Of a DNA stretch of 64,000 bases, positions 440 to 51,000 are shown piece by piece. The stretch's first letter is position 1. Each line of letters begins with the position of its first letter. Position numbers and translations under genes: made by a program. The stretch is from contig NC_086386.1 of NCBI RefSeq assembly GCF_036588685.1, forward strand, positions 18,166,001 to 18,230,000. Reading direction: 5' to 3'. This DNA comes from Mytilus trossulus (Eukaryota). The notes under the pieces were generated by a model. That model did not search any database and was not told where the DNA came from. It worked only from the letters and a program-made list of their open reading frames with translations.

Positions 440-2642
440 CAGCAGCAAGTCTCTAAGAAATATAAATGCTTCTGACTCTTCTGGATACAATCCCATTACT
501 ACTGGCAATGCTTCGTGCCATTGTATGTCAAACAAACCATCATACATATCTCCTATTCTTGTAGGTCGTATTGGGTTACTAGTACCAAGTTCAATGTATT
601 GTCCGTGGTGTTGTTTTCTACTCGACCTTAATATGTTAATATAAAAAGGCTTTATAGTTACGTCACATTTGATGACTAGGTAGACTCAAATGAGCCAATA
701 TTATAATGCTGTGATTCCATTTATATGTTACATACGTGATATCTTAAAGCACAATGTAATTGAAATAATATTCTATGCACTTCAGACTATTTCATATGCT
801 ATGCATATTCTCGCTGTTTTGAAGACCTATTGATGGATTTCGGCGGTTTTCTACTTTTTGGTCGGATTGTTGTCTCTTGGACGCATTCCCCATTTCCATT
901 GGCGCATTCCCCATTCTCAATTGTATTCACTGAATATTCTTTAATGTACAGCTATATATTTGACCTAACATGCAAAAACAAAAAACACAAAATAAACTTT
1001 CGTCTTATTCTATATGGAATATAAGAACTAAAACTTGTGATTTCATTTTCATTTAGACAACTCTGCGTTTTGATAACTTGAAAGAAGCGAATACTACCTA
1101 GAATTTAACTCATCGAGCTCTAGCTTCTGGAGCCTCATTTTTCTCCTCATGTCTTCATAGTCTTCTAATGGTATAGTGACCGTGTCTGGTAACTCACAAA
1201 ACCGAGACCGTTTCTTTTCATCCAGCTGAAAAATAATTATCTTAGTCGATTTGTATTTATAAATTTAAAGTACTTTTTATAGTAATTATAATAATAGTAG
1301 TAGTACTAATGATGTGCAAAAATATCATATTATGGAATTTATTTTTTTACATTATTTTAACTAATTAAATATTTAATTTAGACCAAAAATACAAAATGAC
1401 CAGTAGATAAGGGGTAAACGATACAATATTTTTTTTACTAAAAATCATGAGGCATCAATCCAGTAAACTCCCCCTTGCAACCAAAGTTCAGAACACTTCA
1501 AACTCATGAAACATAAAGTGTACAGAAGATACAGTAAACCGACCGGAAAACAAGATTTGTTATTGAGGAAAAATAACAGTATAACCTGTTTTGCTGAAAT
1601 AATATCAAATGCTTCCTTTACTACCAGGAGTCGACACAGCTCGTCTTGTGCTTCTTTCTGTACAGGAACACCGTTTCTATCTGTGGTTAACATTTCATAC
1701 AAAACATTGGCATGTTTCTGCAAAGGAGCTAATGCTTCAATCCTGTCCACGTCCTGCTTATCTATAGCTAGGAATTCCTAGATGAAAATAAATATTAAGT
1801 ACTAAATGCTAATATAAAACAGTACTAAATAAATTGTTTTGAAATATTGTGTAGACACATGTTCATAATTATGCTTTGTTGAAGACATTTGCAGATTTCT
1901 AGACGTCTTGTTTAGCTAGTTGCTGTTGCATAATGCCATTGGTGTAACCAACGATTTTTTTTGTGTATTGATAAAATTCTATCGCTTGCTTATGTTGCAT
2001 CAAGATAAATGATTAAACTATTCTATATAATACATTAATTAATGAGTACTAGTAATCATTGTTGCAAAGTATTATAACCTACGTCATAAAAAATTCTATC
2101 TGACATTTATAGTAAAAAAAAGTGCAGATATCTGAACGACTAATTTTATAGTTTTATTACATCACATATATAACAACAACTAACTTTTCCTGGGTATACT
2201 TGAAATCGCTGATCCGCTGCCAGTAGTCCTTCATACTCCCCCTTGGCCTGCTTGATTTTGTCAATAGTATATGCATCTTTGACTTGTCGGAGTAGTCTAA
2301 TGATTGCCGACCGCTTTGATTTTGAAGATGCACTACTGGCACTTTTCTGGAATCAAGGAGAACAAGTTCATTAAATGCATTTGACACACAGTTATGACAA
2401 TTACACAAACTATTATTTTGTCTTTAATAGTGTATGATAGTGCTATTGAACATTCTGTATTAATATGGTAAAACAATTTATCTGTAACTGACCCCATCTA
2501 ACTGACACATTGTAAAGGTAAACATTTTGCTGTAAACGATTTTCAATTCCGCATTCTACATAAAAATTCTAAAATTTCATAGGATATCCGCTTTTTGCAT
2601 TTAATTTAAATTTAAACTACAAACCTGATGTCGAAGTGCCAT
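440..2642 (-). CDS. Mieap/SPATA18-domain-like coiled-coil protein A (5' part; continues beyond window start)
   Basis: Exons 2642-2625 (MALRHQ), 2346-2185 (KSASSASSKSKRSAIIRLLRQVKDAYTIDKIKQAKGEYEG...), 1777-1586 (EFLAIDKQDVDRIEALAPLQKH...), 1225-1098 (LDEKKRSRF...MRLQKLELDELNS-R), 626-440 (SSRKQHHGQYIELGTSNPIRPTRIGDMYDGLFDIQWHEALPVV...FLRDLLL). All are GT-AG with compatible phases (0,0,0,2,0). The last exon matches the NRPTKxxExYxxLYDxEWxxA motif of gene B. Mostly missed by the ORF track. Confidence 0.75.
808..922 (+). repeat. Abundant interspersed repeat end (...gaagacctattgg...ttgtctctttgacacattccccatttccattctcaattt)
   Basis: Same sequence recurs at ~7110-7250(+), 7760-7855(-), 21400-21503(+), 33100-33220(-) and as the end of the longer copy 33666-34325(+). 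Confidence 0.75.
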
Positions 2643-4970: not shown

Positions 4971-7900
4971 CTACAAAAAGTCAAAGAATGATTTGTATGT
5001 AGAACCAGTGGTCGATTCCTTAGCTTCAACCATAAGTTCAGTTTCTCCAAAAATCATTTTCACGTCAACTTTGAGTTTTTCGTCCACTTCCGGTAGCTGA
5101 ATGACAACCTTTCCCAAATACTCGCATCCTTTATCTGTGACATATTTAGGATTACTATCTTCAGTTGCAAATATCTTTAAAAGCATTTCTTTTTGGCGTT
5201 TCTTTATTGTGACATGACGGCCACTAACAGCTTCGCCAACTTTTAGTGTTTGGTCGGCTTCTATGTATTTCTTGAAAACGTCTTTTACTCTGTCTGTACC
5301 TTCAATGCTAACACGCCTTTCTGGTGAATGTTCACCGGATTTAAATGGCGGAGAAATGTTTATTCCATATGTATATCTCGATATTCTGACGGAAATTGTT
5401 TGTGGTTGATGCCCATACATAACGGCACCTTTCAACACAGCTAAACCAGCTTCATCTGGAACGACGACTTTCTTGCCCGGAAACGCATCTTTAATTGCCG
5501 ACTGCATTATGGGAGACTCGGAAAAACCTCCGACCATTAATATCGTGCTTACATCTTTTAAAGGGCCTTTAGTCATTAAAGCCTTCACGTGGTTTACCAA
5601 ATTGGTCTTTGGATCATTGAACAATGCACGGAAAAGATTGGCCTCCATTCGTAACTTGTCTCCGACCCAAGTCATTTTGCCTGCGTATGCCATCTGTTTT
5701 ATAACTTCTTTGATTTCCTCTCCCGTTTCTTTTTCAAATGATTGAATTAGTGAAACAGGGACTTTTAACGTGACTTTTCCTTCGGTTTCGTTTGTAATGT
5801 TTCTTTTCTTTGTTTCCATCTCCCTCAAGATATCTAATGCATCAGCTTTGTTTTTCTCTTGAAAAATTCTAAAATGATGTCCACCAACAATTTTAATAAG
5901 AAGCTGATTAAAAGCTTCATCTACACGCGTACCACCCCACGAACCCCCACTTGGTTTCTGTAACTCTCGGAGGCTACCCTCGGCATCCTTCTGATGACAT
6001 GTTATATCAGCTGTTCCACCTGAAATCATATTTTCTACATGTCAGTTTTATAAAGTATATATAAAAATAAGGAGAGATGCGATATGATCGTCAATAAATC
6101 TCTCCACCTATAAATTTCGTAAGAGGTTAGCAACTGTAGGTTACCGTACAGTCTTTAAGCTCATAACAGATAGCAAGCTATAAAATACCGTATAAACTAC
6201 CGTATACTGCCCACCCATCTTTAAACTACAATAAAGTATAGTTTGCATCAATTATTTCGATTCTGAATAAGAGTTATATTGTATGTTCTATATATCGTCG
6301 GAATAATTAGCATAATATTTGTACCAGCCTAGATACAGTTTTTTCGACAAAAATTACGATTTATTATATTAAAATACTTTACTAGAATTCGTTTGACGTA
6401 CCATAGTTAATTGTTATCTTCGCTATTTTATGTGGGTTTCTTTTTTGGGGGGGGGAGGGGGGGAACAGGTCTGAATAAATTGTTCCCGTTCAAAAAATGA
6501 TTCTGATAGTTCCTAAAGTAAAGCCAATATAAAGAAGACAGAACATGTATGTTTAACTTTAATCTAACATACCTCCCAAGTCAAGAACCATGTATTTAGC
6601 CCCTCTTCCGGATGCTGTAAATTCATTGCCTATACCGTCCTTATCTTTAAGTTTTTCTATTGGTAAATGTTGACAATATAAGGATGCTGCTTCGGGTTCC
6701 AAACATATGCTAAGCTGTTCTCCACTAATACCAGCCTAAATTAACAAATGGCAATAATAAAGATTATTTAGTTTGGTGTTGGACAAATATCTGATGCACG
6801 TTCTTAGAATATATTTAAAATAGATAATCAATTATTATTAACGTTTAGGTCAACTTGTTTCGCCAACGTCAGTATATATGTTTTCTTCGGACACTAAAGC
6901 ACTCTTTGCCAATTAAAGAAATGAAGTCATTTAACCAACACAGATTACATTACAAGCTCCCTGGTGGTGCCGTGCTGTCATTTGTAACAATACCGATGGC
7001 TAATAACGAGTTGACAAAAGGATCCCTCATATTTTATCCCGAGTAGTTTTAATTCACATTGATTCAAGGATAAAATCAAAATATACCCTTGAAAACATAT
7101 ACATTTTTGTTAAGGGGCCAGCTGAAGGACGTCTCCGGGTGCGGGAATTTCTCGCTACATCGAAGACCTATTGGTGACCTTCTGCTGTTGTGTTTTTTCT
7201 TTGGTCGGGTTGTTGTCTCTTTGACACATTCCCCATTTCCATTCTCAATTTCACATTGTACCATCATTGACGCCATGCATCAACAAGGAAGAGAGGGATT
7301 GTTTTTAAACATGCTTAAGATCTCATACTTATCTTCCAATTAAAGTTTGAAAAAAATATACCATAAATTAATAATGACATGAAATTTGATAATTTTGATG
7401 TCTTACTTAGCAACAAATAGTTATAAGACCTGAATTAAATTAAAAAAAGCAAGCATAATTTCAGTCAAGTTAGATTTAAATTGGCGAGGTATGATAGTAT
7501 AGAAGATATAAAAAGTATATCCCAGAAATCCTATTAGTATTAGATCTATCTATAAATAAAACGAGGATGTTCAAGTTGTCGCTAGTTTAAATTAAAAAGT
7601 TGCCTTTTCATTCTTTTTATTTTCAAAGAACAAGGCAATTGAAAATGACCAATCATTATCAAAGTTTAAACGTTCTGGTAATGTTTTTCACTTAAAAGTG
7701 GGGAAATGTCCACATATGATCATCAAAACGTTTTGCTGCTTATATTTGTCAGTTTGAATAAAATTGAGAATGGAAATGGGGAATGTGTCAAAGAGACAAC
7801 AGCCCGACCGTAGAAACAGCAGAAGGTCACCAACAGGTCTTCAATGTAGCGAGAAATGAATTCCACTTTTATTTTGAATCTTATTTGTAGTTTTCCCATT

Positions 7901-9913
7901 GACGATCATATCGTATTCCATAATTTTATATGTAGAAAGGCGCCAATACAAATATTGACAACTTTCTTGTGTAGCCATGGCGTTGTTAGTTTATTTTTGA
8001 CTCATGAGTTAGAATGCTCCTCTTGTACATGTATCTTTCGCCTCTCGTTTGAACCGTTTGCTAAGTCAGCTAAATAAGTTTGAAAAGAGCACTTCCATTT
8101 ACTAGTTGGGATATCTAAATTATTTTTTTTGTCATTTTTTTGTGTTCATTTCCGTCAACAAATCAATAACAGTTACAGAAGTGGGTTTTCACATGGATGA
8201 ATATGAAATACATTGATTAAAATAAATAGCCCCAAATACGATGATCTCTTGATTAGTAAAAATAAGTTGGTAAACAAAACCCCATCAGTTTACAATTTCA
8301 CTGCACCTTTTCTGCGGCTTCTCTCATAAACTGTTTAGCAGGCTCTGTCCAAATAGCTGGGACTGTTAACACCCAATGAATGTCGTTATTATCTAGTCCA
8401 GTTCCTCGTGTTTCCAGGGTTTCTAACAAATGACCCTTCAGATATCTTATAACCATGGAGAATATTTCTAGAGCTGGCATTTCTTTACCATTATCGTCTT
8501 TGATCATCGTTTTTCGTGTAAGATGCTTTAAAATAAATTGATGAATAACGCACGTCAAATTTACGAAATGGATAATCTGACAGTTGATAATCGCTTTAAA
8601 CGAAACAATCTGATTGAAATACAAAACATTTATTAGCCAATCACGGCGACAAACATGAGCAGAATAATCACAATATAATTTTCAAACATTATATAAAGCA
8701 AATTAAAGATAGGTTAAAAATACAGATTCTCAGTCCAATCTTTGCTTTCAAGGATCTCACAACACTTCGTTTAAATTTTTGTGGGAGTAATTACTTCATC
8801 AGCCAATACAATTATAGCTTTCAGATTTGTTGAAGGATCGATGCGGCAAAACCAGACTGAAAGAATCCCGAACGGTCTAAAAATATATAGAACGGAGCTT
8901 TTTCAGATCCTCCAGTGTAAACAAAGCTTGCCAGGGAAAAGATCGGTATTTTAATTACATTGTAAAAGGAGCAAATTAACATAAAAATAACTATATAAAC
9001 TGTCAAGATCATTTCTATGGATAAGATAATATTTGGAGAAAATCTGTCAGAGACAACCCCCCTTATACGTTCAGCAAATTGATATCTTAGAAAAAACAAA
9101 CTTGCGACATTCAGCAATGACATTCCTAGTTGTGAATAAATACATTTATCTTATAATATGTAGTCCAACTTCTCAATAGGCTATCCATTGGTTCATAATA
9201 CCGTGCACAAAGAAGTTGCAATTAACGAGGATAAGAGGAAACAACCTGTTTCAAAGAAAAATCTTTGGATTTTAGAATTTGAAATTTAATATTTAACGGT
9301 TTTAAGACAAATTTTAGGAAGCCGTTTTTCGTCGGTTTTATAAGCTTTCTATAAACATGTTCAGTCTGTTTTAAAAGCATTCAATCAATAACATTTCAAA
9401 TACTAAAAGCGATGGATGCATTATTTATTTTTTATCTTTAGTCATAGTTCTAAGAACTAAAGTTGTATGCCAAATTTTACCAAAAGGCTGAGACATACCC
9501 AATTTACAGTCATTGGCATTAAGCGGCATGTCAGCATATACCTTCCTTGAATATCAAATAAAACATCTTTCAAATTAATGAAAATGCGTTTTTATAATTA
9601 CCTTTGTTTCATGAAGTAACATCTTAAATCTACGAAAGTAATAAAAATCAAGATGTTCTTCGTCTAAAGCAGCCTCCGAGTACTTGTCTTCAGCATCGTA
9701 TCCAAAAGCCAGGAACTTTTTGGATTTATCTAACAGAACAACAGTCGGTGCCTTCAGTGAAATCAAGCTTCTAGAACCGGCTGTCCATTGTTGATTGACG
9801 GAAATTTTCATTGGATCATTTTCATAATCAGTTTTGAAGGAAAAAGCATATCCTGAAAACGTTGTTCCAAAGTCAATTGCTGCCACAAGGATTTTATTTT
9901 TTTTGCTCTGCAT
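4971..9913 (-). CDS. HSPA12: Heat shock 70 kDa protein 12-like (atypical Hsp70), 580 aa
   Basis: Exons 9913-9602, 8525-8307, 6735-6573, 6019-4971 (1743 nt, open frame). Motifs LVAAIDFGTTFSGYAFS, WVLTVPAIW, LEPEAAS, VLDLGGGTADIT, WGGTRVD, LMVGGFSESP, RISRYTYG; ends FFDFL with no EEVD, as typical of HSPA12. Confidence 0.95.
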
Positions 9914-11528: not shown

Positions 11529-12034
11529 CTTGTAACACCTAGTCTGTAGTCCACGCATGCGTCTTTCAAGTTTAACTTTCGGTTCTAACGTAAACACAAA
11601 GTAAATGGAATGGGAAATATTTAATGCACTCTGACATCGGATAACAGGTACATACTATTTTTTGCGTTATTTCAATTGTATCTATTTTAAATGAACAAAG
11701 CTATACAGTATTGTTGGTTTTTGTATTCATCTTATTTTAGTGTTTCTGTTCGTTATAAACCTCCCCCTTTTTATAGTTGTGTACAGAAAACCGTTATAAT
11801 TCCTTGAATATTTAAATTTTGTTACTAAATACTCTATTTAATTTAGAGAGACAGAAATTAAGAGAGCTCACTTAATTTGAAAAGTATTTTTTTCTTCTGT
11901 CGAAGTACATCGTTTTGAACAATAAACGGTTTCTAAGTAAGGCTTTCCCGATAATGTTTGTGGAGTGGTTATAAATATTTTATTCAGACACATTATTGTG
12001 TAAATTATTATGTGTTTGCCACAGGTAAGATCAG
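11529..12034. promoter_or_regulatory. Putative divergent promoter with non-coding first exons of HSPA12 (-) and Mieap-like B (+)
   Basis: Both ATG exons begin at splice acceptors (9965 on -, 17136 on +), so upstream exons must exist. Candidate donors face outward: AAG|gtaaat at 11529 (-), and CAG|gtaaga 12024 / CAG|gtaagg 12034 (+). Confidence 0.45.
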
Positions 12035-17137: not shown

Positions 17138-20100
17138 ATGGCCTATAAAAACTTTTCCAAAACACATACTGGTACTGGAAATTATTATGGTCTCTACGGA
17201 GGAGGTACTTCAAATCATCTATCAACTGGACATCTTGGTGTAACAACTAGCGAGAGGTCACCATATAACTCCAGATCCACATCACCGGCAGGACTCTCAT
17301 ATTTGGATAACATCCGACATAGAAACCCTTCGGAGGAATCTCCTGGAATTGACAGAGATCGTCACAGAGATACACATTTATCAACCTCAAAACAAGATGA
17401 TGTTTTGAAATTAATAAGTTGCGTCAGGAAACTTCAAAATGTTGATTTGGACAAAATTGAAAAGGAAATTGATGGATATAAGGTGAAATAAATCATTCTT
17501 CTTTTGCCAGTCTTCCTATTTTGATACTTTTAAAATTCCTAAACTAAAATGAAAGTGCTTTTTGTCTAATATGAAAATTGAGTTGCGCATGTCATATTAT
17601 TATGTCTTATTTGTGGAAGTCTTCCTTTTAGGTTAAAGTATAGGTAAATAGTATTATTTCTCTTATTATTTAAGAACAAATATAAAATGATGTAAGATAT
17701 GATTTTATCTTAGTTTTGTAAGTTTATAGTTTTTGAACAGTTTAATTGATATTTGATATTTGTTTGTAATTAGAAAACAGTACATACCAGTAACCAAAGA
17801 GATGTTGAAAATACAAAAGAAGAGCTACAGAAGTTAAAAGAGGAGAATCTTGCCTTACAAGAGACAACCGAAAGTTTGAAAAACAAATATCTGCAAGTGG
17901 TTGAGGAAAAAAGTGACTATGAGGAAAAATTTCAAAAGGCTAAAGAAGAGTTTAGGCAGCAAGATAAACAAATAAAATATTTGGAACGAATTGTGTCAGA
18001 AAAAGACTTAGAGGTTAAGACACTGGCCAAAGAGAAAGAATCGGCACTTTCAAGGTAAAATCATCTTAGATGCTAAAATGTAAAATATATATAACTAAAC
18101 ATACAGGTTTTGATAAGTGACTACTATTAACTCAATTTATATTTCATGTTTTTCGTCAAACGTATTTCTATTTTTATTTTTGTTTATTGTCTATTGCAAT
18201 TGTGTGATAAAAAAAGTCAATGTACTGATTATGCCATAATGGGTCCACTATTGGAAATATTGGAAAAAATAAATATATATATCTCTATATAATAGTTGGT
18301 CTTTAAAAATACCACGTCCAAGTGGAATAGTGTTAAGTTGGTGCTTGAAAGTGTGTGTATAAAATTAATGCTCTATTTCTACCCATGTATCTATAGCTTA
18401 TCCGCGATTTCCACACTTAATATCGGAAGACAAACTTTGCAGAACTCCATATTATTATTGATATAATGATTAGTTTGTTTTAACTCGAATATGCATGGAA
18501 TGTTTTCTACCTAACATATAGATTTGATAAACATATATATAAATTTCATCCAATTTCTACCAGTCATGATTTACATATATATTTTAAAGGAATAAAAATG
18601 ATAGGACCAATCCCTGAAGGCCAATTTCAAACATTTTCAAATCTTTACTAAAATTTACAGTATGGAAGCTTCGTATGCATACTATGTGACTCTTACACAA
18701 CTATGGCGTATTTAAAACATGTAATTACTCAAAACCGGAATTTAAGTAGATTTATGATAATATCGTATTATTTATTAACTCAAACATCTTTGCAAGGTAT
18801 CACTTTGTTCTGTCTTTCAGATGCAAATCATTTCATGCTGGTTAAGGATGATTGTCCTTGGATGCAGAATTTTATAAAAACGTAAATTTGCAATATTTGA
18901 TTAGACCCGTCTTAAATACAGCATATAACAAACAAATGCCTTTTTGATTTTATGAATAAAATAATCATATGTAAAGTTTAATATTGAAAAACCTTTAATG
19001 TGAAACAAATCATGAAAATTGTTTCTACCTCATTCTTTGTGTACTTTGTTTTAACTTACTACGATTCCATGTATGTGATAAAATTTTGTAAAACTGAAGT
19101 TCTGATAAGTATTAATATATTGTTTTTAGGCTAAGTAAGGAAATGGGAGACAAACTAAGCCAAGAAAACACTGCAATTGCAGATCTAAGCGACCCAAACA
19201 GATCAACAAAACTAGCTGAATTGTATAATACGTTGTACGACAATGAATGGACAGATGCTTTGGAAACATTACAGAGTGCAGGACTAGATGAAGAACTTGC
19301 TGTCAGATCTTTATTGGAAATAATGAAGGTTATTTTCTAGTTTATAGAGCACAGCAGATGCATGTACCTGCGCCATTGTCACTTGTTATCTGTCGTCTGT
19401 CGACTTTTTATTCAAAATCTTCATTTTGGTTTAGATCGACTTGAAAGTTCGAATTTCAGTTAAGTTAAAGCAAAGCTTGTTTTTAAATTTGCCTTAGTCA
19501 AAAGAAGACCATTTTTTATTCACACCCTCTTTTCTTTGTAGCACATATATGACTTTTGCAGTAAAGTTAAAGATGATCATATGCAGCAACTGGAAGCTCA
19601 TTTGATGAACCCTGTATGTATACTTTTTTTTACTACAAATCGGTAATGAAACCATGTAAAATGCACCAGGCAGAAGCTAGAGAACAATAGCGAGCTAGCA
19701 ATAAGCCAGCGAACAATAAGGCGATATATTGAGAAACCAACAAAAAATGATTAGACAGCAACCGCCGTTAAATCCACAAATATTTAAAAAGGCAGAAAAT
19801 CAGTCGAAATATTGCAATTTCAACTCAATCTTGAAATGGTTTTTTATCCCATTAATTGATAAAACAATTCACATCTCTTTTTAGGCTAATATTTAGTACC
19901 ACAGTAAATAAGCATTTTTACAATTTTTTTCAAATTTTGAGCTCTAGTTTCAGATTTTTTAACATAGTGCCCTTCAATACCTTGCGAAACAGAAGCGCGT
20001 GTTTCTCCTCTACAAGACCTATAAAGTCATACCCCGTGACACTCCGAATTTTTTTCTCTGAAAGCCTTGGAAAAAGACAACCCCCATCTCTGAAAATGTG

Positions 20101-23100
20101 TATTTTAGTTTAATTAAACAATGACATCACAGGTGCGATATTTTACAGGGTAGAACTACTTTTAAATTGAAGTGGGTGCATTGATGGTCCTACACCTACA
20201 AATAATCCGTTGATAGATGCAGATTTACTGTGGAACTGCATATAAGCCTTAAAAGAGATGTGACTTGTTTTATCAATTGGTGGGATAAAAACCGTTTCAA
20301 GATATTGAGTTGAAATTACAACATTTGGACTGATTTTCTGCCTTTCGCTAGCTTCAGCCTAGTTATAAATGCAACTATTAGAAACATTAACTTGCACATC
20401 AAAATGCATACAACAGCAACACGAACCATTTAAAGCAAAAAAAGAAATGAATGTACATGCTCAATTAATGACTTTAACTTACTAGACTGAGTATTCATTA
20501 CATTCGATTATATCACAAACGAAAAAAAATTAGACATTCCTGAATAACATTTTTTGACAATTTTTGCAAATGCACTCATTACCCAAAAATTACATTAATC
20601 CCACCACTATCCTGTCTAGTTGCTAGTCTATAAATTCAAAATTTTTCAAAGGTTAAATATATATATATTGAGACACGTGTTACTTTTAAAAGGAGATATA
20701 CTAAGGACAGTTTTTCCCAGTTGAACTCGACCATTATATATATAAGGGGACCTTTAACCCCCTATCATTTAATGGGAAATATCACCAATGTGACATCCTT
20801 TATCAATGAAATAAATAAAACATAATTTAAAAGAGTTAAAACATGTGTTTATTTTCAATTTAGAATTAAATTAAGGCATTCATTATTCTTCTATTCGTAT
20901 GCTAAAACAACGAAATTATGTGTTAAGACAATCTTTTTGTTTCCTGTGTTTTAATATTCAAACGCATGTGTGCTAACGTTATCACGGAGAGTGTTTTGTT
21001 GTCAGCTATAAAAATGAAAACATAAAACACATACGAAAAATACAATAATTATTTAATTATGATTACTCGAAACAGGTATTAACATACTTCTACGCAAGTC
21101 TATGGACCACTTTCAACATTTATGGTAGGAAAAAAATGATATAATATAAGTGGTTGCAACATATTTCTACTCAATGAATTTCAGTTTTTACAAAGACAAG
21201 CTTGGGCTACAGAAAGCGTTTCAACACAATCACCGAAGCAGGTCAGATCAATGTTAATGGATTGTATAAAACTATCATCCAAAGAAATGGGTCGGAATTT
21301 AAGCAAGGTATAGTAATACGAAAATACTTATATTGACATATTAATCGAAACTAAGCATGATTTTAAACATCAACATGATCGATCTTGTTTCCTATTACTA
21401 GTTTCTCGCTGCATTGAAGACCTATTGGTGACCCTTCTACTGTTGTCAGCTCTATGGTCGATTTGTTGTCTCTTTGACACATTCCCCATTTCCATTCTCA
21501 ATTTCATTACAAGCACTTGTGTAAACCTTCGCTTTCTTTGGATTTTATAACACAAGTGTAGTGTGAATCTTAATTTGTATCTTGTTTGAAAAATAATTGA
21601 CTTTCACTGGTCAGAGGCGGATTTAGGGGGAGGCAGGGCCCCCCCCCCTTTTTTTGAGAAAAAAAAATTGTCTGCCTATATAGGGATACAAGATACAAAT
21701 TAAGATTCACACTACACTTGTGTTATAAAATCCAAAGAAAGCGAAGGTTTACACAAATGCTTGTAATGAAATTGAGAATGGAAATGGGGAATGTGTCAAA
21801 GAGACAACAAAAAGCCAGATAAAAAATATGACGTTGAAGTGCGATATTAAAAAAACTTGAATTCCGAAAAGTTGTGCTAAATAGGGGTGTATCGAATAAT
21901 TGCACATTTTATATCAATATTAATGTCAACCCAAACGTGCTTTACTAATGTAAGGTGTAACCAGGCGTTTATATCTTAAACGAACGTTCCAGTAAATACT
22001 TGTATTCAAGTTGTCATCAAACAATACGGCAATACTAAAAACTACAACTATCTGTGTTATGCACAATGAACTTAAATATACACACTGACTCTTTGTCGAT
22101 ATAAAGTATTATACAATTTAACAGCCTGTCTTCTTAATGGAACGGTATGTCACTATAAGACAATGTTGCTGGTACACCTTGTCCTCCAAGTGGGACGGTC
22201 TTTCACTACCAGATGGTACAGCCTGCCTTGTCAATCTGATCAACTGGTACCGTTTACTTTGTACTCACTACCCAGTTACTGTAGCTTTTCTAGTACTTAA
22301 TATAACCGACATACTTACTTGTTGACTTCTGCATGACGGCTCATCAATAGTCAACCGACAGCCTCGAGTGCCTTTTTTTATTTAATTATATACACCCGTG
22401 GTCGAATACATTTTCCCTTAATCGGGGTGTTCTCTAAATGTTACTCTTACGGAACATAGAGAGCACCTAACGATTACCACTAAAACCTTCGATCCGGCCA
22501 CTAATTTTCCCGCCAAACGTCTAAATCTGTCGAACTCTTTCTCGAGCGTAAAACATGCATTGATACAATAAGATTCTAGACCAATATACATTACACTTTA
22601 CTGCCGAGGCATTTACTAAGTGGTTGTAAAATCTCATAAAAATACCAGGCATACAATTTTGTACGCCAGATGTGCATTTCGTCTTATTAAGACTTATCAG
22701 TTTCGCCTGAATGAAAAAAGTATAAAGAAAGAGAAGGGCCAATCAAAATTCGGATTTAAAGACCATTGAAAATATGAGACGGGTAACGTTTTGGTGAGCG
22801 ATGCATCAGTATTTTTTTGTACAAAACGTTGGGCAATTTTGTTAGCTTCCTTCCATGTATGCATTTATAATTCAAACTTTCAGTCTGTTAAATTGTCATT
22901 GTTTCATGTCTTTTCAGTAATAAGCTAGAGATTTTAATGAGGCGTCTTTTTGACAGGGATGTATACATACACATTCAAAAAATGAGGCATTAATTAAGAA
23001 TTTCATTTCACTAAGGTTGAGTGCAACACGTCAAACAAATGAATCCTTACAACGTTTCTTGTGAATATGAAAGTAATATTTGTCACTAAACTTAAACCCA

Positions 23101-24164
23101 TCAACAGTCATTCGATCTGTCTCTCTTGATATCCCTGGCAGAGACAAAATATGTATATCTGTCTCTGGATATCTGAAGAATTTTTTTTTATCTCGCTTAT
23201 GAAAAACCAAATGTATAAGGAGCTCACAAGAATTCCACACTATAATAATACCATTTTTTACCAAGACATGAATTGAGATTTATTTTCGTCATTTAAAACC
23301 ATTTCGCAATGCATTTTTTTTTTTCGTTTGCAGAATTATTTGACAATGAAACAAAAACCAGCTCATGCAGAGCGAATTCCTGAATACGTCGAAAAAGCTA
23401 CAAATCTTTGCTGGATGATGAATTTGTGTAGTCCGCCACTTGTGTTTGGTGCACAACCGCGGACAGGAGACACCCTTGATAAAAACTTGTATAAAGAGTA
23501 CACAAAGCAAGGAGAAATGATCTCCTTCGTAGTATGGCTTCCGTTGTTGATAGAAAAAGACGGACCTGTGCTTTTGAAAGGTGTAGCACAACCTATTCCA
23601 TCTGTCACAAAATCCAGTCGATCTATTGGAAAAGACAGACTATCATCGACCCGAGATTATGGTTATTTAAGCGAAAGAAAACGTACCGAAAAGAAGGACA
23701 ATAAAGATGATCTTTTGTCTGATTTTTTCAGTTCAAATGTAGCTGGTAGTCGAATACATACTGATAGAAAAACTGAGACAGATTTAGGAACCAGGGATGC
23801 ATTGTATGGAAAAGAATTTAGTAAAACGTATACAGCATCATCTGAGAGAGAAAGAAATTCAACGTTAGGAACAATGGAATCGCCTTATGATAATGATCGA
23901 AAAGAAAGACAAACAAAAAGAACAAGTGCTGTAAATTCAGACGTACACTCATGGCGTACCAAAGACTCGTCGTCTGGTGGCTATAGTGGTAGAAATGATT
24001 ATACAACCACACAAACTCATGGATCTCATACATTAGACGCTACCAGTAGTCGCACACATGACAATGGGACTGGTCAAATGATTGACAATATTGAATACCG
24101 CTATCACCACGGTCAAGTGATATTTAAAAAACCAGGTGATACAAAATGGAGATATGCTTCTTGA
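17138..24164 (+). CDS. Mieap/SPATA18 C-terminal-domain-like coiled-coil protein B, 616 aa
   Basis: Exons 17138-17482, 17774-18054, 19130-19328, 19542-19613, 21185-21307, 23334-24164 (1851 nt, phases 0,2,0,0,0). S/T/G-rich N-terminus, E/K heptad coiled coil, IADLSDPNRSTKLAELYNTLYDNEWTDA, LCWMMNLCSPPLVF, LDKNLYKEYTKQG..ISFVVWLPL..DGPVLLKGVAQ, then a low-complexity tail. Confidence 0.85.
19667..20361. mobile_element. MITE with ~75-bp TIRs
   Basis: aaaggcagaaaatcagtc..aatttcaactcaat..cttgaaa.ggtttttatcc (19788-19850) is inverted at 20282-20345. Outer ends caggcagaagctag / ctagcttcagccta. Confidence 0.6.
21462..21811. repeat. 124-bp near-perfect inverted duplication (arms 21462-21585 and 21688-21811)
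   Basis: Direct reading of both arms shows one mismatch; spacer is 102 bp. Confidence 0.9.
22663..22707 (-). ncRNA. Degenerate hammerhead ribozyme (same retrozyme family)
   Basis: Minus strand: CTGATAA-gtctt(aat)aagac-GAAA-tgcaca-TC-tggcgt. Core G8 is mutated and stem III is CpG-decayed. Confidence 0.55.
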
Positions 24165-24664: not shown

Positions 24665-27070
24665 TTTTTATACGACCGCAAAATTTGAAAAAAAATTGTC
24701 GTATATTGCTATCACGTTGGCGTCGTCGTCTGCGTCGTCGTCTGCGTCGTCGTCGTCGTCGTCGTCGTCTGCGTCGTCGTCGTCCGAATACTTTTAGTTT
24801 TCGCACTCTAACTTTAGTGAATAGAAATCTATGAAATTTTAACACAAGGTTTATGACCACAAAAGGAAGGTTGGGAATGATTTTGGGAGTTTTGGTCCCA
24901 ACATTTTAGGAATTAGGGGCCAAAAAGGGCCCAAATAAGCATTTTCTTGGTTTTCGCACTATAACTTTAGTTCAAGTTAATAGAAATCTATGAAATTTTT
25001 ACACAAGGTTTATGCCCACAAAAGAAAGGTTGGGATTGATTTTGGGAGTTTAGGTCCCAATAGTTTAGGAATTAGGGGCCAAAAAAGGGCCCAAATAAGC
25101 ATTATTCTTGGTTTTCGCACAATAACTTTAGTTTAAGTAAATAGAAATCAATGAAATTTAAACAAAATGTTTATGACCACAAAAGGAAGGTTGGTATTGA
25201 TTTTGGGAGGTTTGGTCCCAGCAGTTTAGGAATAAGGGGCCCAAAGGGTCCAAAATTAAACTTTGTTTGATTTCATCAAAATTGAATAATTGGGGTTCTT
25301 TGATATGCCGAATCTAACTGTGTATGTAGATTCTTAATTTTTGGTCCCGTTTTCAATTTGGTCTACATTAAGGTCCAAAGGGTCCAACATTAAACTTAGT
25401 TTGATTTTGACAAAAATTGAATCGGTTGGGTTCTTTAATATGCTGCAACCTAAAAATGTACTTAGATTTTTGATTGTTGGCTCAGTTTTCAAGTTGGTCC
25501 AAATCGGGGTCCAAAATTAAACTTTGTTTGATTTCATCAAAAATTGAATAAATGGGGTTCATTGATATGCCAAATCTAACTGTGTATGTAGATTCTTCAT
25601 CTTTGGTCCTGTTTTCAAATTGGTCTACATTAAAGTCCAAAGGGTCCAAAATTAAACTTAGTTTGATTTTGACAAAAATTGAATCGGTTGGGTTCTTTGA
25701 TATGCTGAATCTAAAAATGTACTTAGATTTTTGATTGTTGGCCCAGTTTTCAAGTTGGTCCAAATCGGGGTCCAAAATTAAACTTTGTTTGATTTCATCA
25801 AAAATTGAATAAATGGGGTTCATTGATATGCCGAATCTAACTGTGTATGTAGATTCTTAATTTTTGGTCCCGTTTTCAAATTGGTCTACATTAAGGTCCA
25901 AAGGGTCCAAAATTAAACTTAGTTTGATTTTGACAAAAATTGAATCGGTTGGGTTCTTTGATATGCTGAATCTAAAAATGTACTTATATTTTTGATTATT
26001 GGTCCAGTTTTCAAGTTGGTCCAAATCGGGGTCCAAAATTAAACTTTGTTTGATTTCATCAAAAATTGAATAAATGGGGTTCATTGATATGCCAAATCTA
26101 ACTGTGTATGTAGATTCTTCATGTTTGGTCCTGTTTTCAAATTGGTCTACATTAAAGTCCAACACGTCCAAAATTAAACTTAGTTTGATTTTAACAAAAA
26201 ATTGAATTCTTGGGGTTCTTTGATATGCTGAATCCAAACATGTACTTAGATTTTTGATTATGGGCCCAGTTTTCAAGTTTGTCCAAATCAGGATCTAAAA
26301 TTATTATATTAGGTATTGTGCAATAGCAAGAAATTTTCAATTGCACAGTACTCAGCAATAACAAGAAATCTTCAATTGCACAGTATTGTGCAATAGCAAG
26401 AAATTTTCAATTGCACAGTATTGCACAATAGCAAGAAATCTTCAATTGCACAGTATTGTGCAATAGCAAGAAATATCTAATTGCACAATATTGTGCAATA
26501 GCAAGAAATTTCAATTGGAGTTATCTTTCATTGTCCAGAATAGTAGTTGAATCAACTTAAATCAATGTTTTATACAATATACAATGTATATTCACTTTTA
26601 CTTCCAACTGATAAATTAAAACAATCTTTACCATTCAGTGATAACAAGCACTTTTTTTACATTTTGATATTTTATGATGTATTTAAATGAGTGATTATTG
26701 TTGCAAACTCCATTAGAAATTTGAATTGAGATTGGTTTTGGAATAAAGGATAGGGGGATGTGAAAAAAAAATTAGGGAGGGGGGGTCAATTTTTCTCATT
26801 TGAAATTTCATAAATAAAAAGAAGATTCCAAACATTTTTTTGAGAGGATTAATATTCAACAGCATAGTGAATTGCTCAAAGGCAAAACAAAAATTTTAAG
26901 TTAATTAGACCACATTCATTCTGTGTCAGAAACCTATGCTGTGTCAACTATTTAATCGCAATCCAAATTTAGAGCTGAATCCAGCTTGAATGTTGTGTCC
27001 ATACTTGCCCCAACCGTCCAGGGTTCAACCTCTGCGGTCGTATAGAGCTGCGCCCTGCGGAGCATCTGGT
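24665..27070 (+). mobile_element. Helentron-type non-autonomous element (HINE/pearl-like) with internal satellite arrays
   Basis: tttttATACGACCGCA start and TGCGGTCGTATA sub-TIR near the end, followed by a GC hairpin (gctgcgccctgcggagca). (GTC)n at 24721-24784; ~160-bp x3 (24795-25240), 261-bp x4 (25245-26290) and 35-bp x6 (26313-26515) tandem arrays. Confidence 0.8.
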
Positions 27071-35407: not shown

Positions 35408-37463
35408 TTCTTCTTCTTCTTATCGTTCGCCTTTACACTTGAATACCAGTCTCATCATCAAATCTGGTGGTCTTCTGTAGGGAATCCACTGGTCCGTATA
35501 GCTTCTCTTCGAGTGATGTTACTGAGTGCCATATCTTATCTCTCAATGCCTGATGGAAATTGCATGACTGTAGGAGGTGTGCTGTATCCTGCTCTGCTTC
35601 TCCACAAGGACACATAGGAGATGGAACAACTTTTATGACTTTGTATAGATGTTGGTTGAGTCTGTTGTGTCCTGTCCTCAGTCTGAAGATAGTGGTTTGT
35701 TCAGATCTTGTTAGCTGGTGGTAACTATCTTGTTGCTGTGGAGTGTTGAACAGAGATTTTATGATAGTCTTCATCTCTGAAAAGCAGACTGGATTTTCTT
35801 CCTGTAGTTGTTCAGCACCATTTTTTTGCTAATCTGTCGGCTTGTTCATTACCCCAAACTCCACAGTGTGAAGGGATCCACTGAATTACTGTTGTCAGAC
35901 TTTTGATGTTGTATAAAGCTTGTTGAAGTTGAGGCAGCTTGTCGTTTTTCAAAGCTTGTAGAACAGAGAGGGCATCAGTCAGGAATACTACTTGAGATGT
36001 ATCATCGATTTTGTTTTTGATGGAATGTGCATCATGAGTAATGGCTTCTTCTTCAGCTTTGTAGTTTGAAGAATGTAGGCCTGTTGGTATTGCCTCTGAT
36101 TGTTGATCTCCATTGGGGTACTTAATGTATATACCAGCCCCTCCATTTGTTGTGGCATTTGTGGCTGACCCATCTGTATATACTCTTACCCAAGTTTCTG
36201 AAGGATACTGTTCTTCAAGCATACTCATCGTAAGTATTTTCTTTACATTACTAGTCTGTTCATCTCTGGTGGTAATGAGCGGAACTGAGGTCAGGATGGT
36301 GACATTTCCAAATTTTTCTTCACAAGGGGTGTTATTCTTTGTGAAAACTATGTGTTCTTTATATTTTGGTAGGGCTTCCTGGTGTTTTCTTTGCAATGCT
36401 CTTGTCTCTAATGTAAAGCTGGATCTTTTAAGTCTGCCTGATGAGAGTTGTTTTAGTCTGGAATTCATTGGGTGGTCTTGTGAACACTGATATTTGGTGG
36501 CCTGTATCATGGCTTTGCACTCCCTTCTCTTTCCTAATGGGGGTATGTTTGTTATATCCTCCATACTTTTTATTGGTGTTGATTTCATAGCACCTGTGAT
36601 GATACGTAGTGCCTGATTCTGAACTTTGTCTAAAGTCTGATGGTGAGACTTGGCTGCAGTCATCCAAGCGTTAGATCCGTATTCAAGGTGTGGTCGTACA
36701 TTTCCTTGGTAGACAGATTTCAATATTTGTTCATTTGCACCCCATTTTGTTCCTGCAAGTTTCCTCATGATGTTCAATTTTCTCCTAGCCTTAGCTTCAG
36801 CTGATGTTATATGTTGCTTCCAGGTCATTCTTTTGTCAAAAGTTACCCCAAGGTATGTTTGTTGGTCTTCCATTTTAAGTGGGGTATCATCCAAAGTCAG
36901 TTTGACAGATTGGGTTTTTGGAGAGAGTGTGAAGAGTGTTCCTGTTGTTTTTTCTCTGTTGATTGTAACACACCACTGCTTTGCCCATGTGACTATAATA
37001 TCTAAAGCTGTTTGTATTCTATATTAAGCTGTAGATGCATATACTCTTCTGAGCACCAGAGAACAAGATCGTCTGCATAAAGTGCTGATTGTACCCCTTT
37101 TGGTAGCTCTGGTACTAGGTCGTTCATAAAGAGTATGAATAGAGTTGGTGGTAATACTCCTCCTTGTGGGACCCTTTGTTTTAAGAGTACTTTCTGTCCA
37201 CATTGCCCATCTACCAGCACTCTGGCTCTTCTATTATACAAGTAAGATTTGGTCCATTTGTACATTCTTCCACTGATGCCATATCTAAGCATTTTTGCAA
37301 GAAGTCCATCTTTCCATACCTTATCAAATGCTCTTTGAAGATCTACATAGACAGCCAACGTTACTTTTTTGGATTGGAATGCATCTTCTACTACCTGGGA
37401 TAGATGTGTAATCTGGTCTTCTGTGCTTATGTATTGTCTAAAACCAGCTTGTTCATTTCCAAT
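35408..37463 (-). mobile_element. 5'-truncated non-LTR retrotransposon (I-group-like; RT + RNase H + C-terminal Cys/His motif), two frameshifts
   Basis: QAGFR, DLQRAFDKV, VPQGGVL, YADD, YLGVTFD; RNase H YTDGS..E..TDALSVL..QWIPSHCGVWGNEQAD; RLRTGH..CPCG..H..C. (AAG)n tail at 35408-35420. TSD aatttgcac(t/g)tgtc at 35394-35407 and 37464-37477. Frameshifts near 37040 and 35820. Confidence 0.93.
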
Positions 37464-38211
37464 AATTTGCACGTGTCATTTAAAAAGATCTAGACCGATT
37501 GTTATCTGCTTTTTTCAAAATCCAAGATAGAGGAAAACACCTCAGCCACCTTGAAATCATATCAGATGGATGGGCAACTAGCCCATGTGTAATGATTGAC
37601 CAATAACACTAGTGGTTTGCTGAAAATGAGATAACATGTCTATCCAATAGCATGGGCATCACATTTTCAATCCACATATTTCATCATCTTACCAAGGAAA
37701 GGATTCAGATCCAGTCAGCTACTCCCCACCCTTGTCATATTAAGCCAACATAATATGTGATTACAATGCCGAGCAATCTATACCATAGATAAAATTTACA
37801 CCCATTTGGACTATATCCTTCTTGACTAATGGCAGCATTTAGACTCTCACCAGTGTGGAGGTGTAAAAATGGTTATCAAATTTATTTTGGGGTTTATTAT
37901 GCCTAATGTTAAAATTTTCTTGCAGTAGAACCCCAAATTAAATTTTGACATTCAAACATTTGCACTAGAAACATACCCAGAAATTCCAACAATTGATTAA
38001 GAACTTAAATTTGTCACTAAAAGCTTAATATATTTTTCAGGTGAAGACTTGTGCACAATGTGCATGTGGTAATCATTTATTTTCATTTTCTATATTTACA
38101 TGAAATTAATTTTTGTGTACTATTGTTTGTCTGTTTACGGGTTCACTTTACTGCTGGTTACTGTTGAAACAGTATCTATATAAATAGGGTGCAAACATTA
38201 ATCCACCATTC

Positions 38212-48028: not shown

Positions 48029-51000
48029 ATGGCAGTTGGAAAGAATAAGAGGCTTACTAAAGGTGGCAAGAAGGGTGGAAAAAAGAAAGTGTGCGTATTT
48101 AAAGTATCAATTGCTCATAAATGAATGTGTTAAGAAAGAGAATTAAGATCCCCGGTGTACTGATGATGCGATGTTAAACTGATTTTTATTCGATTGGTGG
48201 TCATCATGCCAAAAGTTGTCGTTCATCCTTGCTAAAACACACATGACTCGCTCACATTATGTTAAACCCAAACCGATAGATAAATTTCACAAGCAACTGA
48301 GTTCATATGTTGTGTGGTTCAAAGAACTAGCTCGTATTAATAATGAGAATACTTGTAAATTGACCGCCGTTCATGATGTTTTTACCTTGCTTTATTATTT
48401 AGAGCACAAAATGTTCACATACCATACCTGTCAACCTCTGAAAATGAAAAGTCAGGTCATGACCTGCATTGAGAAAAAAAATCTCAGGTCATAACGCGTA
48501 CGACATTTTGCGGGCTCAATTGAAGAACAAAAATATGTTTACATATAATTTATATAGTCAATATGTATATAAAACAGTTAGAACATGTATACAAGTTTAT
48601 TTCAGACTATTGTTATATTCCATAGTAGCAGACTTGGCATTCTTTAAAAGAACTGCACTTGGTTTCAGTTCATAGCAATGCAAATGTATATTCATTTTAC
48701 AAGAAAGAAGAGCACACAGTGTATCCTTATTAAGATCAGCCCTAAACTCTGTAGCTATTTTCTTTACTAAAGAAAATGCCCTCTCACTGTCTGCATTGCT
48801 GTTTGGCAAAACCAGTAATGTTTTAGCAAGTTTTGACAAAACAAAAAATCTTGGCTTGTTAAGAAAAATGTCATGCAACTTGGACATTTCTCCCCAAAAT
48901 GTACCAATGTCAGTTTCAGGGGAAGTGCAAAGTGGAAGTTCATCTAATGGGGTCAACTGATAGTCACTGAACTCATCTTGTAGCTTGTTGAAAATATCGT
49001 TACTTAGCTCAGGTAAACAAGTCCTACATTTTGACTTTTGGTTACATTGAAAAAGACCGATAAAACCGAAGGTCGTATTACTTCTAAATACCGGAAACAA
49101 TTCCGGTCAGAAATCCGGGTGAAACGGGTAATGTTAGAAATTCCCGGGACCCGCCGGGTAAAGAAAAACTCCCGGGTGATAGGTGAAAATAACGGGTGTC
49201 ACCCGCAAAAAACGGGTGAGTTGACAGGTATGACATACGTTTAATATAAACCATTTACATGCATATTCAAAAGAGGCATACTAATTGATATTGATTGTAA
49301 ATGGCACAAGTCTTCAAAAAAGTACTGAGAAGTAATGTAGAAGTAGTAAGTAGGATGCATGGCCAGTTTTGGACTTAAATAATCCATGCAATGGGTCCTA
49401 ATTTTGAATTTAAGTATTGATCTAGTAAAATCTGAATACCTATATATTCTTTTCAGTGAAAGAATTTCTCTTCAGATGTCAATGTTCATATAGTCTGTAC
49501 GGCCTTCAACAATGAGCAATGCAGGATAGCAAGAGGCGTATTTAGGCCCCCTTTTTTTCAAGGAAAAATTGGGTTGTTCAATAGGGAATCACAAGAGCTG
49601 GCCTCCAGATAGCAGTCAATCTGCCCCCTACTTGATAAAATTTCTGCCCACTGTAAACTGTAGTCCGAGATTACTCTGACGTTGTTCGAAGGCTGTTTAG
49701 CCAGACAAGCTGGGGCCGTGGGACGTCAGAGCTTGTCCCATATCAAAAAGTGGATATTTGCCCACCCAAAATAGATGCGCTACTTCCTCGCTTCAGGAGC
49801 CGACTGAGGGCCTTGGAATTATAAAAATCAGGCATCAATCTCTTCAGTTTTCATTTATCTCTTCATTTATGTATGTTTCACCTACCTGCCAAACCTTTAA
49901 TTTTCTATATTGTAACATTTTTCACAGAGACTCATGATTTCTCCATGTTGCCTTTCATTTCCAAAGATTATCACGTGACCACGAGAAAACAGTGCAAATG
50001 ACCATAATGTAACATCTCGTTCATTTACGCTGTGTTACCTAAATGTCCGAGAGCTGCCGATTGTTATCGGGGTCGGAACTAAATGCTAGTTAGAAAAAAC
50101 GTGGTTGCTTCTAAATGTTATTCATCGATCTCCTATAAAGGAGGTAACAAAATATAAATATTTGCATATTTGAGTCTCGAGGCCACGAAATCTCTCGTAA
50201 CTTGACATCCATTTGAAAGTGAAAGTCACAAATGGAGAAATCATGGGTCTCTGTGAAAAATGTTAAAATATAGAAAATTAAAGGTTTGGCAGGTAGGTGA
50301 AACTTACATAAATGAAGAGATAAATTAAAACTGAAGAGATTGATGCCCGATTTATATAATTCCAAGGCCCTCAGTCGGCTCCAGAAGCGAGGAAGTAGCG
50401 CATCTATTTTGGGTGGGCAAATATCCACTTTTTAATATGGGACAAGCTCTGACGTCCCACGGCCCCAGCTTGTCTGGCTAAACAGCCGTCGGACGTCAGA
50501 GTAATCTCGGACTATGTAAACTGGGGCTGTTGAATGTTGTCCCATGTCAAGTGGATATTTGCCTGTCGAAAATAGATGCACACTTCCAGGCCTGGGGCCA
50601 TTACATTTCAATGTAATGCATTACATTACAATTACTTTGTGATTCTTCCATTACAATTACATTTTTTCTCACATGTAATGCACTACATTACAATTACTTT
50701 GCCTGTGTAATGCATTACATTACAAATTACTTTTTCAATATAAAAACAAAAAGCATTTCAAAAACAGAGGTAGTGTTAGGTACATAGACTTCAAATACTG
50801 GTTAATTAATATGTCCATTGCACTTTATCATCATGAGTGGTTTAAGTGTGATGCCATTAAGAGAACAGCAATCAGTTCTTTTTTCACCTTTCCGGCAATA
50901 CTTAAAAGCCTTTCTACAGGAGATTTTGTGTGGGAAATGGCTAAATACTTGATAGCTGTATTAGCCAAAGAAGAAATACACTGAATTTGACTTCCATTAT

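Follow-up and report, generated by a model that had tools for sequence, protein, structure and literature searches.

The last exon of a Mieap-type gene, in a stretch of mussel DNA of 64,000 nucleotides, encodes a small beta domain or head, which is almost certainly homologous to the head of GrpE. This whole stretch is called the window here (G000:C14:18166001-18230000); the closest named relatives of its proteins come from Mytilus mussels. GrpE is a dimer, held together by a long coiled coil and a four-helix bundle, that resets bacterial and mitochondrial Hsp70, as the exchange factor of DnaK and of mitochondrial Hsp70. In the window, the Mieap gene is accompanied by a gene for an HSPA12-type Hsp70; both are intact and spliced, and they face away from each other. 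In addition, bacteria encode a family with homology to Mieap as well as to GrpE, its genes coming directly after those of the HSPA12 type. As a GrpE-like fold is predicted and the pairing is also seen in bacteria, Mieap proteins are likely to be the missing dedicated helpers of HSPA12. That is, Mieap is probably a GrpE-derived, dedicated partner of HSPA12-type Hsp70s, and most likely their nucleotide exchange factor. Here, the predicted binding of Mieap to HSPA12-type proteins is quite likely, and exchange activity on HSPA12, for which the argument is one of analogy, is mildly favoured.

The Mieap-like gene spans positions 17138-24164 of the forward strand and has six exons, GT-AG introns and a 616-aa open reading frame without an internal stop. 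Coding exon 1 (17138..17482, +) starts with the ATG and encodes a low-complexity N-terminus. This is followed by exon 2 (17774..18054, +), a long, coiled-coil-like segment with weak matches to generic coiled-coil families in Pfam, whose GrpE match at E 0.32 is meaningless. The Pfam MIEAP domain (PF16026) begins in exon 3 (19130..19328, +), which contains DLSDPNR from 19182 and YDNEWTD from 19236 and is predicted to contribute a part that touches HSPA12. Exon 4 (19542..19613, +) and exon 5 (21185..21307, +) encode the helical part of the domain, while exon 6 (23334..24164, +) encodes the last helix, the GrpE-like head, a polar tail of about 190 aa and the stop. The exon joints were found in contigs from public runs, which were guessed to be RNA and of which only the joints were used. 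The first joint (17482/17774) is present in 4/4 runs and three downstream joints in 3/4; one contig reaches from exon 2 into exon 3, and exons 4 and 5 are likewise joined in run contigs.

The protein belongs to the Mieap/SPATA18 family by the curated cut-off. Exon 6 passes PF16026 with E 4.2e-7 and 30.6 bits over a 92-aa part (cut-off 27), and the whole exon scores 27.2 bits, the gathering score being 27. The window protein is identical to P0001 at 574/616 positions, and the family residues DLSD, YDNEWT, CW, PP, W and KG are conserved. It differs from the family in the long polar tail after the head and in having W-L-P in the place of W-P-x. The sequence-only reading that preceded this work had suspected W-L-P to be such a departure, and this is borne out: among 158 readable heads (58 of the 216 rows were unread by the pattern) W-P-x occurs in 155 and W-L-P in one. 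As W-L-P is common to P0001, P0002 and P0003, it is a lineage substitution and not decay. W-L-P as the mark of a pseudogene was ruled out by this sharing, the joined exons and the stop-free frame. Elsewhere in the family, B-box zinc fingers are fused to the MIEAP domain in 3/53 representatives scanned (P0081, P0087 and P0100).

The motif residues for which a GrpE pattern had been proposed by eye lie in frame on the forward strand at 23385-23591. They comprise a helix, YVEKATNLCWMM (23385-23420, +), followed by GDTLDKNLYKEY (23466-23501, +), VVWLPLL (23529-23549, +) and LLKGVAQ (23571-23591, +). The residues assigned to 23400..23595 were correct; the start was not, since the helix begins 15 nt before 23400. 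In the AlphaFold2 model, the helix preceding the head (model residues 12-31) corresponds to 23367..23426 (+), and the GrpE-like beta head, placed by the model, structure searches and profile bridge, to 23430..23597 (+). Of the helix and coiled coil that had been expected before the head, the helix is present in the model and a coiled coil may be encoded by exon 2, with its weak, generic matches.

Two AlphaFold2 models were used for fold comparison: a 92-aa model of helix and head (pLDDT 89.6, built on 61 aligned rows of paralogous exons) and a 231-aa model (pLDDT 88.8, from 57 rows). For the 92-aa model, ranks 1-10 in Foldseek are all GrpE chains, with probability 0.99-0.60 and E 0.04-0.25, and no match reaches E 0.001. 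VIA-align, run on 48,161 chains, also returned GrpE at ranks 1-4, with Z of 6.7, 6.4, 6.1 and 6.1, in the range of 6-7 that the tool calls common, and rmsd of 3.8, 2.8, 3.1 and 2.4 Å over 82, 74, 78 and 52 residues; the next match has a Z of 3.0. The best of the four is a mortalin-bound GrpEL1 chain, which is tied with bacterial GrpEs. For the 231-aa model, GrpE occupies Foldseek ranks 1-6, with a TM-score by query length of 0.21-0.27 for the top GrpE rows, and VIA-align gives 1DKG a Z of 6.0 (rmsd 4.8, 119 aligned), a tie with unrelated helical bundles at Z 6.2. No useful match came from a viral structure library, where the best E was 1.1. With the 92-aa model, GrpE came first in both Foldseek and VIA-align, so that the structural check proposed with the sequence-only reading was positive. 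The claim that the C-terminal domain of Mieap is GrpE-like is supported by these fold searches and by significant, transitive profile homology.

Direct comparison of the sequences gives a different picture. Identity in the structural alignments of the head to GrpE is 6-13%, and HHalign of Mieap to GrpE gives 4.4% over 14 columns, which is not significant. The Mieap profile A1 has 0 matches to PDB sequences at E<=10, A6, compared with the same sequences, reaches GrpE only at E 0.55-2.8, ranked below designed helical proteins, and the head has no match to PF01025 (GrpE) at E<=10, the gathering score being 25.8 bits. Taken on sequence alone, the Mieap-GrpE resemblance is no more than chance. The alignment made by eye is not significant by itself; the resemblance becomes so through the fold and a bridging bacterial family. 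HHalign gives 94.4% for Mieap and this family (E 9e-8, 74 columns) and 95.8% for the family and the GrpE head (E 8e-9, 50 columns). The two bridge pairs score 44 and 49, as against 19 or less for reversed and 40 shuffled controls. Here, Mieap W-P-A-L aligns with bacterial Y-P-G-Y and with Q-K-G-Y in GrpE. Convergence, in which a small beta domain unrelated to GrpE happens to follow a helix, would fit the low identity, the structural matches at E>0.001 and Z<8 and the 4% of direct HHalign; it is largely refuted and deserves next to no credence, given that all four matches with Z>=5 are GrpE with a gap of >3 to the next, and that the significant two-step bridge is joined by an Hsp70 gene context.

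Single sequences connect the families as well. In Nostoc, the gene after the HSPA12-like one scores above the MIEAP cut-off (E 1.7e-6; one of 59 ORFs scanned) and matches GrpE weakly, at E 0.03-0.05. At E<=1, 8/21 bacterial heads match GrpE and 4/21 match MIEAP. In the opposite direction, the bacterial profile gave weak matches to several Mieap proteins among 342 proteins scanned, with iE 6e-6 at best, and none to P0001. PF16026 was found in 0/14 control genomes.

Mieap can be compared with GrpE/Mge1/GRPEL1 (PF01025; PDB 1DKG, 3A6M, 4ANI and 9BLS) feature by feature. The two have in common the helix and beta-head fold, predicted for Mieap, a coiled coil upstream of the head, putative in Mieap, a G-x-x-F/L-D motif and a pattern of C-terminal strands, for which the bacterial family is the link, and the contact with Hsp70 lobes IA and IIB, again predicted. 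Unlike GrpE, the Mieap head is far below the PF01025 cut-off and has W-P-A-L for Q-K-G-Y, the N- and C-terminal regions are long and variable, and the predicted partner is HSPA12 and not DnaK. In the model, the helical part between the coiled coil and the head is also larger than in GrpE and differently packed, and this bundle carries the Mieap-specific DLSD and YDNEW motifs.

In an Atlas search with residues 200-430 of P0001, the nearest clusters outside MIEAP were unnamed ones from Mucoromycota (0.90 and 0.85) and Actinomycetota (0.84). The C-terminal domain of plant GIL1/IRKI (PF24994), present on 71% and 44% of the members of two Atlas clusters, is a look-alike of the Mieap domain at 0.76-0.77, below 0.9. 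This similarity is a lead only, and the plant proteins might represent one more GrpE-like branch.

The second gene of the window was located by a six-frame scan at 4971-9913 of the reverse strand. It has four coding exons: exon 1 at 9602..9913 (-), exon 2 at 8307..8525 (-), exon 3 at 6573..6735 (-) and exon 4, with the stop, at 4971..6019 (-). Exons 2 and 3 are found in run contigs, and splicing of the gene was seen in 4/4 runs. A probable 5' untranslated exon lies at 11529..11557 (-), from the joint 9965/11529 in one contig of one run. This gene and the Mieap gene are arranged head-to-head, with start codons 7.2 kb apart. Its product is identical at 580/580 positions to P0219 (heat shock 70 kDa protein 12B-like), and is as such an Hsp70 of the HSPA12A/B type. 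It matches PF00012 weakly, at E 3.6e-12, keeps the Hsp70 nucleotide motifs and gives 98.9% in HHalign to E. coli DnaK. What sets it apart from that type is a candidate cofactor and bacterial operons, both identified in the present analysis. The sequence-only reading had passed over this neighbour, which would give the GrpE resemblance a function.

The same pairing occurs in bacteria. A search with the mussel HSPA12 exon led to 8 plasmid records of Streptomyces, and all four of the loci inspected have a coiled-coil gene of 229-244 aa, beginning 10-28 bp after the HSPA12-type gene and encoding the partner head. A GTDB scan gave 25 HSPA12-like loci from cyanobacteria and gammaproteobacteria, among others, including single Chloroflexota, Bacteroidota, Myxococcota and Acidobacteria records. 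In 23/25, the head is encoded by the gene directly downstream of the HSPA12-type Hsp70; in the two exceptions, the Hsp70 is truncated and fused (L081) or the contig ends (L084). The bacterial profile was seeded by eye on 15 downstream genes and found 8 non-seeds at iE 1e-14 to 1e-29, with none of the other ORFs (533 scanned) under iE 0.08. When 301 genomes were drawn evenly from one phylum, each of the two genes turned up in the same 4, side by side; 3 of these genomes were already in the set, and one of those 3 was the centre of the draw. Among 144 genomes of one family, 8/8 HSPA12-like genes have an adjacent partner, 3 of the 8 being new. Of 4 further partner matches in these genomes, two lie at the ends of contigs, one adjoins a C-terminal fragment of HSPA12 and one, next to a DnaK-like gene, is a canonical GrpE. 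Many of the bacterial loci are cyanobacterial and they have common ancestry, so that these counts do not amount to independent events. At two loci, L083 (G014) and L153 (G424), the HSPA12-like gene is broken or partial, and the L083 partner is also short. Viral contigs yielded no HSPA12-like locus and contained only 2 near-identical GrpE copies.

Genes surrounding the bacterial pair include dynamin-like GTPases (L080, L089), double-AAA ATPases together with a second Hsp70-like gene (L070, L071, L073), and vWA and radical-SAM-like genes (L082, L069). In several loci (L069-L093), an unnamed gene of about 600 aa lies upstream. The dynamin-like, AAA and vWA neighbours would suit a role for Mieap as an adaptor, anchor or inhibitor that occupies the exchange-factor surface of HSPA12 and is not an exchange factor. 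In this role it would tether HSPA12 to a client, a membrane or a condensate, or keep it switched off pending a signal, and might belong to a stress or immune module. The wide variation of Mieap N-termini, B-box fusions included, points the same way, as do the strong expansion of Mieap and an Hsp70 orthogroup in bivalves (reported in the available part of PMC8382680) and the tandem Mieap copies borne by Endozoicomonas/Endonucleobacter bacteria. Such a role is nonetheless rather unlikely: GrpE homology and an Hsp70-then-partner gene order recall dnaK-grpE operons, and PADLOC, run on 16 proteins, reported no system, giving generic coiled-coil noise alone, in 3/16. NCBIfam named no system among 18 proteins, the partner and neighbour matches being generic coiled-coil or HTH.

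The tandem copies are found in P0007 (Ca. Endonucleobacter bathymodioli) and P0011 (Endozoicomonas sp.), which have 4 and 3 animal-type Mieap domains, respectively. These genes are possibly host-derived and may engage host HSPA12. A metagenome scan with P0011 gave 24 loci, where split matches resemble host DNA with introns.

In mussels, the pairing was followed through the genome. There are 85 MIEAP matches, 69 of them on C14, and at least 150 matches to the HSPA12 first exon (180 candidates, of which 150 were scored), with 50 on C14 among the matches listed. For linkage, 66 of the 69 C14 MIEAP matches were used (3 other exons of one gene were dropped), together with the 50 C14 rows among the 150 HSPA12 matches listed; the 16 MIEAP matches outside C14 were left out. 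Four of the 25 Mieap clusters on C14 are within 20 kb of an HSPA12 exon, where 0.75 are expected (P 0.006), and 3/24 are when the window's cluster is removed (P 0.023). A second compact, head-to-head Mieap-HSPA12 pair exists at L159, with coding frames about 1 kb apart. A 200-kb cluster (G000:C14:17.99-18.19 Mb) holds 15 matches to the MIEAP last exon. The Mieap gene of the window is the final one, and the single HSPA12 gene listed there lies inside the end of the cluster. Weak hints come from named records, that is, Tegillarca locus tags that are five apart (P0040, P0245) and same-length scaffolds in two scallops. For 19/25 C14 Mieap clusters, the nearest of the listed HSPA12 exons is over 200 kb away. 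Pairing is thus no general rule, and a proposal in which each mussel Mieap gene has its HSPA12 neighbour was rejected.

The unlinked majority of clusters, and the size of the two families (85 and at least 150 exon matches), could also mean that the GrpE-like head is real and was re-purposed in animals, for the binding of lipid (cardiolipin) or of a canonical Hsp70 such as mortalin, with HSPA12 adjacency in the mussel being due to chance. Lipid-related roles of the C-terminal structured half of human Mieap (described in the main text of PMC10845071) and a top structural match to mortalin-bound GrpEL1, tied as it is with bacterial GrpEs, fit such re-purposing. It is distinctly improbable, as the mussel linkage is above chance even without the window locus and as the bacterial co-occurrence of HSPA12-like gene and partner is strict. 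In addition, a predicted complex with HSPA12 passes, on conserved residues, and a canonical mitochondrial GrpE exists elsewhere in the genome, on C4, where the one and only own-genome PF01025 match is located.

That complex was predicted for P0219 and residues 200-430 of P0001. It scores 0.77, 0.77 and 0.81, the best of three controls scoring 0.00; at least 95% of the contacts are common to the runs and the partner pLDDT is at least 84. In microbial pairs, the mark for passing is reached by 51/78 solved and 2/108 mismatched pairs, and in eukaryotes by 39/65 solved pairs without a like complex and 2/126 unrelated pairs. Proteins closely related to a true partner pass too, as did 7/44 blind neighbours, and the score does not tell which paralogue binds. 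P0001 was modelled as a monomer, where GrpE is a dimer, and the score may stem from likeness to solved DnaK-GrpE structures.

On the Mieap side, the predicted interface of 45 residues includes parts of the sequence at L205-N245 and, in the head, K392-Q397, V405, G415-L418 and V422. It holds 20 of the 42 most conserved positions (>=80%; P 3e-6). On the HSPA12 side, the predicted contacts correspond to DnaK lobes IA (about 17-33, 130-135 and the last helix) and IIB (helix 9 and sheet E). The comparison with DnaK-GrpE rests on the main text of PMC2940730, where the IA and IIB regions are named as contacts of all exchange factors. The head of GrpE also wedges against lobe IB of DnaK, at residues 47-60 (available text of PMC10803776). 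The HSPA12 residues aligned to this segment are outside the confident predicted contacts, and consequently the model gives no opening action. The absence of a confident IB wedge, and an interface drawn in large part from Mieap-specific helices, are what an adaptor, anchor or inhibitor might show; against this, the modelled head docks on IIB, the lobe contacted by all exchange factors.

For the preferred reading, of Mieap as exchange factor, the following mechanism is proposed. In line with the predicted complex, the head and a helix-loop-helix that carries DLSD and YDNEW would dock on the nucleotide-binding domain of HSPA12, at its lobes IA and IIB. By analogy to DnaK-GrpE, this binding would open the HSPA12 cleft, ADP would be released and the ATPase would be reset. 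The variable N-terminal coiled coil and the tails of Mieap may then choose location or clients.

A broader reading, which is tentative and falls somewhat short of an even chance, is that eukaryotes have a second GrpE lineage beyond the organellar one. Here, Mieap/SPATA18 would be the exchange factor of HSPA12 within an ancient two-gene module, which is an operon in bacteria, a head-to-head pair in the mussel and a co-expanded pair of families in bivalves. If so, human SPATA18 would act through HSPA12A/B.

Human Mieap is placed in mitochondrial, cardiolipin-rich condensates by PMC10845071, whose main text is without Hsp70 or any other chaperone link and one of whose supplements contains no HSPA12, HSPA9 or GrpE. 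The same main text ascribes to it a role in mitochondrial quality control and states that Mieap orthologs are absent from bacteria and fungi. In the available part of a 2026 review (PMC13580251), the function of HspA12 is called unknown, no cofactor is named for it, and eukaryotes are said to retain no dedicated cytosolic GrpE. If Mieap is a GrpE-derived HSPA12 cofactor, these statements in both papers, as far as their available text goes, need revising. Bivalves have 53.1 Mieap (OG24) genes each, as compared to 0.6 in other molluscs, and 68.1 genes of an Hsp70 family (OG10) as compared to 4.4; OG10 is not called HSPA12 in the available part of this source (PMC8382680). The parallel expansion of the Mieap and HSPA12 families in bivalves would then have a cause, and the small bacterial operon would be a simple test system. 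HSP70 and GrpE also occur in the GAP1-N2 GTPase systems of Kaur 2020, a different context and, in the available part of PMC7159879, without a Mieap link. A full-text search of the freely accessible literature on Mieap/SPATA18, GrpE and HSPA12 found no description of such a link between them, and the fold assignment of the Mieap head may already be recorded elsewhere. What is new here is an animal Mieap member with a fold match, a sequence bridge, animal linkage and a complex prediction that passed. Mieap and HSPA12, two families of relevance to humans and both poorly understood, are in this way brought under a single biochemical hypothesis.

Other features of the window and of the genome were noted in passing. 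The preceding Mieap copy may have an exon at window positions 1448-1777 (-). Intronless MIEAP copies, with the whole domain in one frame, are present at G000:C2:83751895-83756855 and C5:36717518-36735270. Just downstream of the Mieap gene, a GTC-type microsatellite (24724-24783) is followed by a degenerate tandem repeat array (about 24790-26400). A retroelement resembling reverse transcriptase/RNase H, read from translation in several frames, lies at 35436-37475 (-), a hAT transposase dimerisation domain (PF05699, E 2e-9) at 48600-49106 (-) and an exon of ribosomal protein S3Ae (PF01015, E 2.8e-41) at 53984-54361 (+).
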